From a virus (taxonomy: Duplodnaviria > Heunggongvirae > Uroviricota > Caudoviricetes): DNA of 21,365 bases. This document shows, one piece after another, positions 4,724 through 13,545 of the stretch. Both the position numbers and the translations under genes were made by a program. The stretch is from the IMG/VR virus record IMGVR_UViG_2574180227_000016; one strand, given 5' to 3'. A model generated the notes under the pieces. It ran no database searches and had not been told where the DNA came from. It saw nothing but the letters and a program-made list of their open reading frames with translations. The stretch's first letter is position 1. Every line of letters begins with the position of its first letter.

Positions 4724-4884
4724 AATGACGCCCTCGAGTGGTTTCTAAACTATCACCACCGTCAGGTTCCTAATCATCGGGTGGCGAGACGTACAGGGTT
4801 AGGAACTACCGGGAAACCAACCGGCGAGCTTTTCAGCTCCCCTATACGCCCCACCATAATTCAGATGTGCGTGTGCATACGACA

Positions 4885-4909
4885 ATAAAAAACACGCTCG
4901 CGGCGTGTC
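4885..4909 (-). terminator. rho-independent terminator inside the nin region (tR2-like candidate)
   Basis: In - strand sense: ACACGC-CGCGA-GCGTGT followed by TTTTTTATTG. Confidence 0.45.
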
Positions 4910-5000
4910 TCTGTCGCGGTTTCTATCCGGGGTTCCTAATCCCGACGCCAGATTTTGCTGGCGCGTGAGGAATATAGCCCCGAATAAATCATCACGTCAA

Positions 5001-9396: not shown

Positions 9397-9425
9397 ATAA
9401 TACGATATGTACTTTTGGAATGCAA
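9397..9425 (-). promoter_or_regulatory. PR candidate promoter (TTGCAT-17 nt-TATTAT, - strand)
   Basis: Reverse complement of 9420-9425 is TTGCAT and of 9397-9402 is TATTAT, with a 17-nt spacer, about 30 nt upstream of the cro ATG. The -10 overlaps an operator repeat. Confidence 0.5.
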
Positions 9426-9473
9426 TCGAAAAAATACATCTTGTGCATGGATGGTTTTAGTACGGAGCGTAAT
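9399..9473. promoter_or_regulatory. OR operator cluster: three 15-bp sites of form AGTAC-N5-GTACT
   Basis: AATACGATATGTACT (9399-9413), AATACATCTTGTGCA (9433-9447, weaker), AGTACGGAGCGTAAT (9459-9473). The same motif recurs at OL (AGTACACATCGTACT). Confidence 0.45.
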
Positions 9474-9488
9474 AATGAGGGTATGAAA

Positions 9489-10142
9489 ATGAAATGGTAT
9501 GAACTGGCTAGATCCAGAATGAAAGAACTCAGCATAACTCAAGAGAAGTTAGCTGAAGAGCTTGGTATGACGCAGGGTGGAATTGGTCACTGGTTGCGCG
9601 GATCTCGTCATCCATCTCTTGACGAGATTGGTGTGGTGTTTAAGTACCTTGGTATTAATAACGTCTCATTCAACCACGACGGTACATTTTCACCTGTTGG
9701 CGAATACTCATCAGCCCCCGTTAAAAAACAATATGAGTACCCTGTTTTTTCTCATGTTCAGGCCGGGATGTTCTCGTCTGAGCTTAGAACCTTTACCAAA
9801 GGTGATGCGGAGAGATGGGTAAGCACAACCAAAAAAGCCAGTGATTCTGCATTTTGGCTTGAGGTTGAAGGTAACTCAATGACCGCACCAACAGGTTCCA
9901 AACCCAGTTTTCCTGACGGGATGTTAATTCTTGTTGACCCTGAGCAGGCTGTTGAGCCAGGTGATTTCTGCATAGCCAGACTTGGTGGTGATGAGTTTAC
10001 CTTCAAGAAACTGATCAGGGATAGTGGTCAGGTGTTTCTACAGCCACTAAACCCACAGTACCCAATGATCCCATGCAATGAGAGTTGTTCCGTTGTTGGG
10101 AAAGTTATCGCCAGCCAGTGGCCTGAAGAGACGTTTGGGTGA
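9489..10142 (+). CDS. cI: CI-type prophage repressor (HTH plus LexA/S24 autopeptidase domain)
   Basis: N-terminal HTH ([25 protein letters not shown]) and C-terminal S24 signature ([10 protein letters not shown], catalytic Ser; TFKKL, Lys). GAGG sits 8 nt upstream of the ATG at 9489. An ATG at 9483 could give a leaderless start. Confidence 0.85.
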
Positions 10143-10151
10143 GGAGGATAG

Positions 10152-10493
10152 ATGGCGTTCACTGACCTTGAATATCAAGCGGTCAAAAAAGAAGTTCACC
10201 AATTCATTGAAAGCATAAGGCCGCCTGAACATATCCGCAATGAACTGGATATTGTTTATAGCATCAATGACCAAACGATAGATATCGGCGAACAGCGCCC
10301 CGTGTGGCAGGGCAACCCAGGTGAAACAAACATCCTGCCATCAGCAAGAATCAAGTACATACGTTCTCTGGATAGATGGAAAATCTATTGGATGCGGAAG
10401 GATATGAAATGGCATCAGTACAGTACTGAACTTTCGCTGACTGATGCGCTTGAGCTTGTGCGTGCTGACCCGGATTGCTGCTTCTTCGGATGA
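10152..10493 (+). CDS. hypothetical protein co-transcribed with cI (cargo gene A, 113 aa)
   Basis: GAGGAGGA RBS directly after the cI stop. Tryptophan-rich C-terminal half (WKIYWMRKDMKWHQY). Flanked by a 15-nt direct repeat. Confidence 0.6.
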   Translation: MAFTDLEYQAVKKEVHQFIESIRPPEHIRNELDIVYSINDQTIDIGEQRPVWQGNPGETNILPSARIKYIRSLDRWKIYWMRKDMKWHQYSTELSLTDALELVRADPDCCFFG

Positions 10494-10563
10494 GTGAAGA
10501 GACGTTTGGATGATGGATGGTCGCAGAGATGCTCGTAGAGCATACAGCGATGCAGGAGAATTT

Positions 10564-10998
10564 ATGGCACTTAATTTAGAAAGAATATCTTTTATAACCC
10601 CATTTGATAGCAGCGAAGAACCCAACCAACCGACGCTTAATTTTACATGCAATGAATTTCCTGCGCGGCTATCAATTGATTTCAGGGTTGGTATGATCGG
10701 GTTGAAACCAAATTCAAGATATAATTTGGGTATTATGGTAATCCCCGCGCACCTAATTATAAAAAAAGGTGAGGAAATTCAATTCCCTGACGGCTCTTCG
10801 GAATCAGTTTCACTTTTCATCGATACGAAAGATAGCCATTTTGAAACAGGGGTTGGCGGACAGGTAATAGTAACATTGAAAGAAATTAGGGTCCCAGCTA
10901 AAGGGCTGTATAGTGTTATAGGGATATTGCAAGATAATGAAGACCCTAAAAATGAACTTCATAAAAATGAATCATTTTTCACCGTAGAGCTATTATGA
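10564..10998 (+). CDS. hypothetical protein (cargo gene B, 144 aa), AT-rich
   Basis: AGGAGA RBS 5 nt before the ATG at 10564. No TM segment and no recognised family. Confidence 0.55.
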   Translation: MALNLERISFITPFDSSEEPNQPTLNFTCNEFPARLSIDFRVGMIGLKPNSRYNLGIMVIPAHLIIKKGEEIQFPDGSSESVSLFIDTKDSHFETGVGGQVIVTLKEIRVPAKGLYSVIGILQDNEDPKNELHKNESFFTVELL

Positions 10999-11615
10999 GT
11001 GACGACAGTAATTTAAATAATCATGGAAAGCAAGACACCAACATATCTGAAAGCCGGAGGTTGAAGGTTGTTGGCGGTTCTGATTTTGAGGCTGAATTTG
11101 ATAATTCTCCCACCAAGGTGCAAAATAATTACATAAAACCGCCACAAACGGAGGAAGAAGTGGGAACGATCAGCAGAGAGGAACTTGATGCTCGCTTAGC
11201 TGCTAATAAAGCAGAGATGGAGTCTATTGCTTCCTCCATTAGGGCTGACATGGCTCTATCTCGTGAAAGCGTTAATGTCCAATTTGCATCACTTAATGCA
11301 GCCATAAGCTCTCTATCGTCCAAGATCGATGGAAAGATGGATAGCGCTGCTGGCGATATAAAAGCAATTAATGGGAGATTCGAAGGAATTCAAGGACAAA
11401 TAACAGGGGTTAATACCGCAATTAGTGGTGTTCAGTCGGGTATTTCTATACGATTAGCCATTTTTAGTGTCATTATCGCTGTAATAGTTGCGATTCCCGG
11501 GCTGGTATCAGCTTTAAAGTCAGACCACGCACCTTTGCAACAGCCTTCCACTTTGCAAGCGCCGCCACAAAATACCCAGCCAACAGACAACAAAAAAATC
11601 ACTCCCCAGCATTAA
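10995..11615 (+). CDS. hypothetical membrane-anchored protein (cargo gene C, 206 aa)
   Basis: ATGA overlap with gene B. Polar N-terminus, repetitive Ser/Ala/Ile-rich central segment, one predicted TM helix (IRLAIFSVIIAVIVAIPGLVSAL) and a Pro/Gln-rich tail. Followed by a strong terminator. Confidence 0.6.
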   Translation: MSDDSNLNNHGKQDTNISESRRLKVVGGSDFEAEFDNSPTKVQNNYIKPPQTEEEVGTISREELDARLAANKAEMESIASSIRADMALSRESVNVQFASLNAAISSLSSKIDGKMDSAAGDIKAINGRFEGIQGQITGVNTAISGVQSGISIRLAIFSVIIAVIVAIPGLVSALKSDHAPLQQPSTLQAPPQNTQPTDNKKITPQH

Positions 11616-11621
11616 CGCATT

Positions 11622-11649
11622 AACCCGGCCTCAGCGCCGGGTTTTCTTT
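11622..11649 (+). terminator. rho-independent terminator ending the cI operon (tIMM-like)
   Basis: AACCCGGC-CTCAGC-GCCGGGTT followed by TTTTCTTT. Confidence 0.6.
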
Positions 11650-11821
11650 GCCTCGCGATCCCCCACCTAAAAAAACATAACTCATTGTATTTATTGAAAA
11701 ATAAATAGATACAACTCACTAAACATCGCAATTCAGATCTCTCGATCACCTCCCAAGCCACTCAACCCTGCAAAATATAACCCCATAAAATACAAAACGT
11801 TATAAAAAACTAATCATATTT

Positions 11822-11864
11822 AGAACATTTTGTATTGACCCAATAAAGTACACATCGTACTATT
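11822..11864 (+). promoter_or_regulatory. PL candidate promoter (TTGACC-17 nt-TACTAT) with two overlapping OL operator sites
   Basis: -35 TTGACC 11836-11841, -10 TACTAT 11859-11864. OL sites AGTACACATCGTACT (11848-11862, perfect inverted repeat) and AGAACATTTTGTATT (11822-11836). Confidence 0.55.
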
Positions 11865-12111: not shown

Positions 12112-12495
12112 ATGACACGCAGAACTCAGTTCAAAGGCAATTCACGTTCTCGTCGTCGTGAGCGTTTAAAGGCAAAGGCATTAGCTAACTGCGTACTGGC
12201 CCGCGAAGAAGCAATAAGTTCAGAAGTATTACACCGCCCTACTCTAAGCAGAGCGCAGATTCAGGCTAAAGGTACTCACGAAACGCCTGAGCGCATAGAA
12301 GACGCTAAGCCAATTAAGTTCATGGCACAGGACGTGATCTGGCAACAGAAAGAATACAGACGCAATCTGGAGCGAGCAGCCATTGTGTACGCGAATGAGT
12401 TTGGACATAAGCAACCAGAAACTGGTGTATGTCTTCCAAACGTAGCCATTTACGCGGCAGGCTACCGGAAATCAAAACAACTGACGGCGAGGTGA
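12112..12495 (+). CDS. N: N-type antitermination protein with N-terminal arginine-rich motif
   Basis: AGGAGG RBS. N-terminus MTRRTQFKGNSRSRRRERLKAKA is an arginine-rich motif. First gene downstream of PL/nutL. Confidence 0.7.
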   Translation: MTRRTQFKGNSRSRRRERLKAKALANCVLAREEAISSEVLHRPTLSRAQIQAKGTHETPERIEDAKPIKFMAQDVIWQQKEYRRNLERAAIVYANEFGHKQPETGVCLPNVAIYAAGYRKSKQLTAR

Positions 12496-12556: not shown

Positions 12557-13180
12557 ATGTCATCAATCCGCTTAACTACGAGAATGAAAGAGGAAATCGC
12601 TCGTAACGCTTTAATTAAGTCTGGGGTTTTCACTGAACTTGAAGAAGTAACAAAGTTAAAGAACCAGCTTGCACTTGACGCCAGAGTTATTGCGTTTGGC
12701 GGTAAAAAGAAAACTGAGGAAGTGGATCAGTTATCATCCAAGTTGGTAGCTATAAGTGAAGAACTTGAAAAGATGGGATGTTCATTTTACTCATACGATG
12801 TTAGTTCTACTTCAATTTATCTGACTGTATCTGGCAGAAGGGTTGGATGGCATTCATATGGGAAAGACGGCAACGGCAAAGATATATTGCTCCCTACTCC
12901 GACCAAAGATAAATGCATGTTTGACGCAGAGCACGAAATAACAAAAAGGTTTGATGAAATCTGCGCATTGCAACAAAAACTTGAAGCCAAGAAAAAGGAT
13001 ATCGAATCAAATGTATGGGCTGCTTTAAACTCAGTCACAACAGTTAAGCGATTTATTGAAGTTTGGCCTGAAAGCAAAGAATTGCTACCAAAAGAAGCAG
13101 ATAAAGCAAGTACAGCACTTCCTGCTTTACGGGTAGAAGATTTGAATAAGATGATTGGACTTCCTTCCGAGGCCGCATAA
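12557..13180 (+). CDS. hypothetical protein (207 aa), AT-rich cargo between N and cIII
   Basis: Start placed at the internal ATG with GAGAGGA RBS (the track ORF begins with TTG at 12497). Lysine/glutamate-rich, no recognised family. Confidence 0.55.
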   Translation: MSSIRLTTRMKEEIARNALIKSGVFTELEEVTKLKNQLALDARVIAFGGKKKTEEVDQLSSKLVAISEELEKMGCSFYSYDVSSTSIYLTVSGRRVGWHSYGKDGNGKDILLPTPTKDKCMFDAEHEITKRFDEICALQQKLEAKKKDIESNVWAALNSVTTVKRFIEVWPESKELLPKEADKASTALPALRVEDLNKMIGLPSEAA

Positions 13181-13377: not shown

Positions 13378-13404
13378 TATGTGTAAATAAATAAGGAGCA
13401 CACC

Positions 13405-13545
13405 ATGCAATATGCCATTGCAGGGTGGCCTGTTGCTGGCTGCCCTTCCGAATCTTTACTTGAACGAATCACCCGTAAATTACGTGACGGATGGAAACGC
13501 CTTATCGACATACTTAATCAGCCAGGAGTTCCCAAAAATGGATAA
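13405..13545 (+). CDS. cIII: CIII (FtsH/HflB inhibitor)
   Basis: Manual translation [46 protein letters not shown] (46 aa) matches lambda CIII over its length; AAGGAG RBS. Under the ORF-track cut-off. Confidence 0.8.
   Translation: MQYAIAGWPVAGCPSESLLERITRKLRDGWKRLIDILNQPGVPKNG

Follow-up and report, generated by a model that had tools for sequence, protein, structure and literature searches.

The repressor-side slot of lambdoid prophages is occupied by rexAB in phage lambda and by bstA in the Salmonella prophage BTP1 (PMC8585504, PMC7067206), and both papers cite Degnan 2007 for the interval between cI and N as a mosaic hotspot of accessory genes, or morons. RexAB and BstA, the occupants characterised in these papers, act against phages, and an anti-phage role is plausible for the genes described below. 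Phage 933W has an annotated kinase gene, stk, in the same slot, where the order is cI-L0084-L0083-stk-L0081-tM and L0084 heads the L0083-stk-L0081 block. Its product Stk excludes phage HK97 and likewise acts against phages. Here, the genes next to cI were analysed in the window, a 21,365-nt stretch of DNA (IMG/VR record IMGVR_UViG_2574180227_000016, Caudoviricetes) that is a lambdoid prophage of Escherichia coli. Three genes, referred to as A, B and C, lie between cI and a homologue of the lambda terminator Timm, an interval that is a plug-in accessory ('moron') slot of lambdoid prophages, and they form two independently mobile modules: A alone, and the translationally coupled pair B-C. It is highly probable that A, B and C are accessory modules expressed in the lysogen, and the chance that these modules act against phages is somewhat better than even. 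The reading preferred here, of lysogen-expressed anti-phage modules in which B-C are an adaptor and a membrane effector, is evenly balanced as a whole, and the specific adaptor/effector mechanism at the membrane is put forward tentatively.

Gene A (10152-10493, + strand; 113 aa, soluble), gene B (10564-10998, + strand; 144 aa, soluble and acidic) and gene C (10995-11615, + strand; 206 aa, one transmembrane (TM) helix) were found as three co-oriented open reading frames (ORFs) after cI, as stated by a first-pass annotation of this DNA, which had also placed them in a slot equivalent to that of rexAB. This placement is sound, cI lying upstream and the terminator downstream being homologous to lambda Timm and 933W tM. 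With lambda RexAB the locus shares the slot itself (cI 3′ end to Timm, repressor strand) and, for B-C, the combination of a soluble and an inner-membrane protein with the soluble gene first. The two differ in that no sequence similarity exists between them, that B (144 aa, predicted to be Ig-like) is unrelated to RexA, and that RexB is polytopic and ion-channel-like (PMC8585504, and in part general background), whereas C is predicted to be a single-pass, tail-anchored coiled coil. The lack of resemblance to RexA/RexB claimed earlier was confirmed in Pfam-A, PADLOC, NCBIfam and PHROGs, which gave no Rex model for A, B or C. The operon of 933W shares gene A (L0084), its ribosome-binding site (RBS), remnants of a cI 3′ end and the terminator family with the window, which differs in lacking L0083, stk and L0081 and in having B-C instead. 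Like A in the window, bstA of BTP1 lies directly downstream of the repressor gene, whose promoter it shares, and its synteny extends across genera (PMC8585504); BstA differs in being one large, soluble protein that binds DNA, with an anti-BstA DNA element embedded in its gene, and has no similarity to A, B or C. In the scans of these four collections, none of the three genes belonged to RexAB, BstA, Stk or any superinfection exclusion (Sie) family.

That A and B-C are separate modules was established from the junctions. Gene A is a 371-bp insert bracketed by a 19-nt direct repeat derived by duplication of the cI 3′ end. Copy 1 of the repeat (10124-10142, + strand, TGAAGAGACGTTTGGGTGA) is the last 19 nt of cI including its stop codon, and copy 2 (10495-10513, + strand, TGAAGAGACGTTTGGATGA), located by the same repeat search just after the stop codon of A, is a remnant of a lambda-type cI 3′ end. 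The segment containing A (10115-10532) is 98.6% identical to 933W. For B, C and the terminator, an identity of 98% was obtained with HK542 and HK244, two phages of lambda immunity in which cI is directly followed by B and C and then by Timm; B-C replace rexAB in both. The 933W match stops at 10532, and copy 2 of the repeat is regarded as the mosaic junction because homology to HK542 begins there, at 10495. In 933W, a lambda-type cI 3′-end remnant precedes the RBS of L0084, although its own cI ends differently, and L0084 is followed by another remnant and then by 19 nt of a cI-to-B spacer of the HK542 type, after which the sequences diverge. These footprints imply that the insert carrying A either originated in a cI-B-C arrangement resembling that of the window or moved through one.

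The distribution of the genes was determined in 5426 complete E. coli genomes, in which A was present in 227, B-C in 51 and all three in 18; about 209 genomes had A without B-C, and 33 had B-C without A. Among 50,697 phage records, only HK542 and HK244 encoded B and C. One E. coli genome retained only 72% of the B-C region. The first-pass annotation had treated the interval as a single three-gene cassette, and the corresponding explanation, one integrated defence system made of A, B and C, would fit the adjacency and common orientation of the genes in one apparent operon, and their joint occurrence in the 18 E. coli genomes and in 13 viral contigs, where at least five cI alleles precede them. 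It is nevertheless very unlikely: the 19-nt repeat marks A as a separate insertion, most carriers of A or of B-C in E. coli lack the other module by the counts above, and HK542 and HK244 carry only B-C. Furthermore, A was never present with the homologues of B-C in other genera (Citrobacter, Cedecea), in metagenome contig L017 or in divergent types of viral contig, and elsewhere A occurs alone or together with the stk block.

Gene C was matched over its full length to phrog_5820 (1e-76), a family annotated 'unknown function'. The protein begins with a variable, disordered stretch (residues 1-55), continues as a Gly-rich coiled coil made of heptads (about 60-150) and a TM helix (about 154-175), and ends in a Pro/Gln-rich tail of 31 aa. 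Only one hydrophobic segment was detected (Kyte-Doolittle 2.71 at residues 156-174), the AlphaFold2 (AF2) model has helices at 61-142 and 150-174, and the TM helix is preceded by a 93-aa heptad-built region with 15 Ser, 14 Ala and regularly spaced Gly, so that hydropathy and modelling both upheld the earlier description of a single TM helix after a repetitive Ser/Ala-rich region; no DNA tandem repeats were found under the heptads. Since C has no signal peptide and 150 hydrophilic residues precede its only TM helix, it is expected to be a tail-anchored inner-membrane protein with a cytoplasmic N-terminus and its bulk in the cytoplasm. In the family alignment, the most conserved part is the juxtamembrane segment G-x-N-T-A-I-S-G-x-Q-S-G-x-S together with the TM helix. 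The Pfam families XhlA, CCDC90-like/DUF1640 and archaeal SlaB share this architecture, a coiled coil at the N-terminal side and a single TM helix at the C-terminal end, and gave weak matches with C; they differ in acting in lysis, mitochondria or S-layers rather than in repressor operons, and because all these matches were sub-threshold, no homology is claimed.

Gene B was matched over its full length to phrog_5893 (2.1e-50), also annotated 'unknown function'. The protein is acidic, has neither a signal peptide nor a hydrophobic segment, and was modelled by AF2 as a 7-strand Ig-like beta-sandwich (predicted local distance difference test score (pLDDT) 67, predicted template modelling score (pTM) 0.64); B is taken to be a soluble cytoplasmic protein of this fold. 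The locations proposed in the first-pass annotation, a soluble partner and a membrane-anchored protein, thus agree with a soluble B and a single-pass C, while the effector role that it gave to C stays putative. The B family is tiny: at E <= 1e-3, it numbers 23 among 1.84 billion representatives, and some of these 23 are repeat-protein artefacts. Matches of the B profile to giant proteins (2696-4194 aa, E to 9e-43) were discarded as artefacts in which many repeats of about 5 bits were summed in Ig/cadherin-like proteins. Sequence and profile searches of the PDB gave nothing significant for B or C.

Homologues of C were seen in Citrobacter, Cedecea, Salmonella, Leclercia, Pectobacterium and Yersinia and in metagenome contig L017. 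At these loci, a prophage repressor gene is nearly always followed by exactly one small ORF and then by C; the exception is a Yersinia locus (L007), in which the pair has DinI and Mu-like baseplate genes as neighbours. Scanning of IMG/VR with the C profile yielded 40 loci with a usable C gene, of which 39 had a small ORF directly upstream of C and 37 had a same-strand repressor of the S24+HTH or HTH-only type upstream of the pair, with at least nine sequence-distinct repressors represented. In all contexts examined, the partner and C are spaced between an ATGA or 8-nt overlap and a 20-nt gap, and the resulting two-gene module, a small ORF overlapping or within 20 nt of a C-family gene, is present in the window and in HK542 as well. 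One viral contig (L060, 1559-1984) has an extra gene for a 141-aa protein with an N-terminal hydrophobic segment and no Pfam match between the S24 repressor gene and the pair, which indicates that the slot can hold further cargo.

The partners fall into five classes among which no mutual similarity was detected: the B family (143-150 aa), proteins of about 92-97 aa, proteins of about 98-101 aa, proteins of 112-120 aa with a CxxC...CxxC motif, and a 149-aa Salmonella protein. The last was tried as a distant homologue of B on account of a shared C-terminal 'GLY...FF.V' and was rejected (profile comparison probability 0.3%, HMM E 0.098). Partner class and the N-terminal segment of C co-vary throughout (47 of 47 pairs), while the coiled coil and TM helix are conserved, and the upstream partner gene and the N-terminal 40-110 residues of C are swapped together among the five classes. 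From this co-variation, the unit of exchange is taken to be the partner together with the N-terminal part of C, a unit whose border falls within the C gene. A remote but significant homologue of B (phrog_5893, 3.5e-22) was also observed between the tail and baseplate genes of an E217/Pam3-like myovirus (L019/L020, 4001-4751); the gene after it overlaps it by 8 nt and encodes a protein of 108 aa that has a coiled coil and a C-terminal TM helix. The pairing accordingly extends beyond lambdoid repressor operons.

In the preferred reading, B would dock on the N-terminal segment of C and supply specificity, probably by recognising a component of the infecting phage, and C would be the common membrane-acting effector across the partner classes. 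When triggered, C would disturb the inner membrane, giving an abortive or exclusion-type protection of the lysogen, by a logic analogous to that of RexA/RexB and independent of homology to them, and A would act as a separate anti-phage or lysogeny-fitness factor. It is possible, with less confidence than attaches to an anti-phage function in general, that B-C represent an unrecognised modular family of prophage immunity, in which interchangeable small cytoplasmic partners of at least five unrelated folds, the Ig-like B among them, dock on the N-terminal segment of C and set the triggering phage, and C permeabilises the membrane as an abortive effector. Such a plug-and-play sensor/effector pair might, on the same tentative footing, be carried in repressor operons across the Enterobacterales.

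A different use of the membrane position of C would be non-abortive superinfection exclusion, in which B-C block DNA entry or an envelope step at the inner membrane in the manner of HK97 gp15, P22 SieA or T4 Imm, and either the short periplasmic tail or the TM helix of C is the active part. This fits an inner-membrane protein made from a repressor operon and the periplasmic motif Q-P-I-I-I-Q-V-P that most C homologues carry about 10 residues past the TM helix. Morons are often found in tail-gene clusters, HK97 gp15 being an example, and a B-C-like module lies in such a cluster in the myovirus. On the other hand, about 150 of the 206 residues of C and all of B are predicted to be cytoplasmic, the motif is degenerate in C of the window (QPSTLQAPP), and a variable cytoplasmic partner is hard to reconcile with a periplasmic block. 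Nor was any family of the HK97 gp15, P22 SieA/SieB, T4 Imm/Sp or Cor type, or any other similarity to known Sie proteins, obtained among the Pfam, PHROGs, PADLOC, NCBIfam and PDB results. Exclusion of this kind is considered unlikely.

Gene A could be assigned to a family, unlike B and C, for which only unannotated PHROGs were found, so that the earlier statement that no family was recognisable fails for A and stands for the other two. The product of A was matched to Pfam DUF3024 (PF11225) with 2.4e-31 and 108.7 bits (cut-off 24.9), residues 4-113 aligning to positions 2-112 of the 112 in the profile, that is, over its full length. It belongs to phrog_3467 and was matched over residues 1-113 to the PADLOC model PDLC05018 of PDC-S43 (7.2e-42); the PADLOC scan called for by the first-pass annotation therefore gave a candidate PDC-S43 for A and no match for B and C. 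The protein has no signal peptide and no hydrophobic segment. In the searched collection, all members of the family come from Enterobacterales; they form 46 clusters, each with a length of about 113 aa and none with fusions. Its invariant features include an N-terminal MAF-D-E, a core W-x-x-Y-W-x-R...W and a C-terminal C-F-[FW]-G. No PDB relatives were found by sequence or profile search, and a match to AvrPto (E 0.07-0.16) was at chance level.

PADLOC PDC systems are 145 candidates taken from genes embedded in BREX, DISARM and type I restriction-modification (RM) loci, and A is linked to defence through this derivation. The window agrees with PDC-S43 in that A fits the model over its full length and differs in that A lies in a prophage repressor operon rather than embedded in BREX, DISARM or RM. 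In Erwinia, A occurs with the whole block of L0083, kinase and 47-aa protein, without cI and beside DinI genes; in Rahnella it stands alone beside DinI and tail-fibre genes; and in Yersinia ruckeri it adjoins a P63C-domain gene near smpB. From these varied settings, A behaves as a self-contained single-gene moron, and it is most likely a separate anti-phage or lysogeny-fitness factor. The whole 933W block is conserved in Erwinia aphidicola (L021, 4001-6130), where the DUF3024 gene is joined by those for a protein of 153 aa, a Ser/Thr-Tyr kinase and a protein of 47 aa; no repressor is present, and DinI and tail genes adjoin the block. This conservation suggests a possible functional tie of A to the kinase genes as well.

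Another explanation is a non-defence role, in which the genes would serve lysogenic conversion or regulation through prophage induction, envelope physiology, stress tolerance or host colonisation. The lambda genes lom and bor are said to aid host colonisation. Hex of phage 434 modulates prophage induction (PMC3564112). Consistent with such a role, A lies 9 nt past cI with a strong Shine-Dalgarno sequence and would be made whenever the repressor is made, in other genera A, like the partner-plus-C pair, is also found at prophage ends next to DinI genes, no defence-specific domain was recognised, and many such slots hold non-defence genes. Set against this are the anti-phage action of the slot occupants RexAB and BstA, and likewise of Stk, the recovery of the A family embedded in BREX, DISARM and RM loci, and the combination of a variable specificity partner with a conserved effector, which is typical of an arms-race system. 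A role outside defence is rated as rather unlikely.

The genes were also compared with their orthologues in other genera, and for all three the proportion of nonsynonymous differences (pN) was 0.2-0.5 against a saturated proportion of synonymous differences (pS) of 0.67-0.93. Since pN is far below pS, the ORFs are real, and A, B and C are genes under purifying selection. Chance reading frames or decaying remnants might have been suspected from the annotation of the ORFs as hypothetical and from the AT-richness and rarity of B-C, of which one copy is disrupted by IS1. This explanation is already refuted by conservation and keeps hardly any probability: intact orthologues are found in at least seven genera, the RBSs and the translational coupling are conserved, B is modelled as a beta-sandwich, and synteny is kept in 39 of 40 viral contigs.

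With regard to the operon, the + strand order in the window is cI, A, B, C, hairpin terminator, PL-like promoter and N, with cro, cII and O divergent and upstream of cI. A 1.6-kb query (10100-11700) was 99.9% identical to a prophage of E. coli SCU-104 that adjoins mlrA/yehW. The cI repressor gene (9447-10142, + strand; Peptidase_S24, Pfam 9e-29, and HTH_3, 2e-9) has in-frame start candidates at 9420, 9447 and 9489, its start being uncertain, and a TGA stop at 10140-10142; its SCU-104 orthologue is annotated in RefSeq as a LexA family protein. Bases 9732-10145, in the 3′ part of cI, are 95% identical to the lambda-type cI of HK542, and cI is a hybrid of this lambda-type 3′ part with a 5′ part encoding a different DNA-binding domain. 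The hybrid structure implies that a lambda-like cleavage/dimerisation domain is combined with an immunity specificity of its own. The RBS of A (GAGGAGGA, 10141-10148, + strand) was read from the sequence directly after, and overlapping, the cI stop codon, as described before, and an identical RBS (GAGGAGGA) precedes L0084 in 933W. Gene B is preceded by AGGAGA (10554-10559); an alternative upstream ATG at 10510 would give 162 aa, and its homologues in other genera start at the 144-aa position. The B/C overlap noted in the first-pass annotation was found as ATGA at the coordinates given above, and the AT-richness that it had noted for B/C is real but modest (GC 0.385-0.43 vs 0.455-0.48 for cI).

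The intrinsic terminator of the repressor operon, equivalent to Timm/tM (11622-11651, + strand), was identified from its hairpin, its folding energy and homology. Its stem (11622-11643) has 8 pairs, 6 of them G-C, and is followed by TTTCTTTG; the folding energy is -17 kcal/mol (z = -2.9). Over 11600-11780, the identity to HK542, whose equivalent element carries the annotation Timm, is 91%, and the flank is also homologous to lambda (86%) and 933W tM (91%), so that the slot has conserved recombination handles on both sides. A PL-like promoter (TTGACC-17-TACTAT, 11835-11863, + strand) reads into N (12112-12495, + strand, an intact 127-aa ORF) in the layout of 933W and HK542, and the earlier claim of a strong terminator before PL is correct. 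No convincing terminator or promoter was found between cI and Timm; a promoter-like site inside C (11098-11126) was dismissed as being at chance level (3 sites found vs 6.2 expected). Since the interval from cI to C has no convincing signal of either kind and the homologous operons of HK542 and 933W are annotated as such, A, B and C are probably transcribed along with the repressor gene in the lysogen, starting at the cI promoter.

Several points weigh against the anti-phage reading with B-C as adaptor and effector. Co-transcription with cI is deduced from the absence of signals and from the annotation of HK542 and 933W. B and C have no match in Pfam, NCBIfam or PADLOC, and their AF2 models are of moderate confidence for B (pLDDT 67) and poor for C (pLDDT 59). 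The likeness of the C juxtamembrane segment to the heads of alpha-pore-forming toxins is weak and far below significance (MakE 0.006, with 15.7 bits for the NCBIfam model at a cut-off of 360; SmhB 0.014, as the E-value of the PDB profile over 58 residues), and a resemblance to ClyA-type toxins (MakA/MakE, SmhB) is a lead only, with no significant match. The co-variation of partner and C N-terminus could reflect mere physical linkage of adjacent DNA. B-C are rare, being present in 0.9% of the E. coli genomes, and the copy disrupted by IS1 is that of the E. coli genome NZ_CP031134.1 (103058-104886), in which an IS1A element interrupts the B-C region. For A, the PDC systems are explicitly unvalidated predictions and are treated so by other authors. 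Finally, the searched literature contained no functional data on A, B or C: no paper mentioned DUF3024, PDC-S43 was named only in a strain inventory, the B and C ORFs of HK542 and HK244 were not mentioned, and searching by accession and locus tag brought up nothing relevant.

The searches of Pfam, PADLOC, PHROGs, NCBIfam and PDB gave no homology of A, B or C to a characterised defence, exclusion or structural protein, and none to housekeeping proteins, which had been named beforehand as an outcome that would count against a defence module. The description of the locus as undescribed was half true, as the ORFs had been deposited as hypothetical in 933W (L0084) and in HK542 and HK244, and the cI-N hotspot had already been described.

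Other features of the prophage were recorded. The N flank is 82% identical to the nutL/N region of 933W; at the N position of SCU-104, RefSeq lists only a 69-nt pseudogene fragment ('regulator, incomplete'), and the N ORF of the window is intact. The first gene after N (about 12557-13180, + strand) has a counterpart in SCU-104 annotated in RefSeq as 'Nmad5 family putative nucleotide modification protein', which is unusual for an early-left operon. The lambda cIII thermoregulator element was detected upstream of cIII (13392-13450, + strand, 88.5 bits). At 4777-4977 (- strand), an Rfam C4 antisense RNA with a1/b1 targets and isrK was found next to two antirepressor-type genes, annotated in SCU-104 as a P22AR C-terminal domain protein and a phage antirepressor, and this arrangement resembles a second immunity region, of immI-like type, within the prophage. 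In the late region, an STnc100 small RNA (907-1111, - strand, 137.6 bits) and a weak tRNA-like match (1943-2012, - strand, 32.6 bits) were detected.

The most interesting finding is the architecture of B-C, a variable partner plus a conserved tail-anchored coiled coil, and the locus as a whole adds uncharacterised occupants of a known slot. If the genes do not affect phages, it would be another pair of morons of no assigned role. As the cI-to-N slot has already given RexAB and BstA, its uncharacterised occupants are worth searching for new immunity mechanisms, and HK542 and HK244, which are isolated lambda-immunity phages, offer a near-isogenic comparison with lambda for B-C. If the conserved coiled-coil/TM core of C is indeed an effector that accepts five unrelated partners, the module would be a compact case of diversified sensing coupled to one killing or blocking device. 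Gene A lies next to cI in a large share of Shiga-toxin phages, and it may therefore matter for the stability or the phage resistance of enterohaemorrhagic E. coli (EHEC) lysogens.

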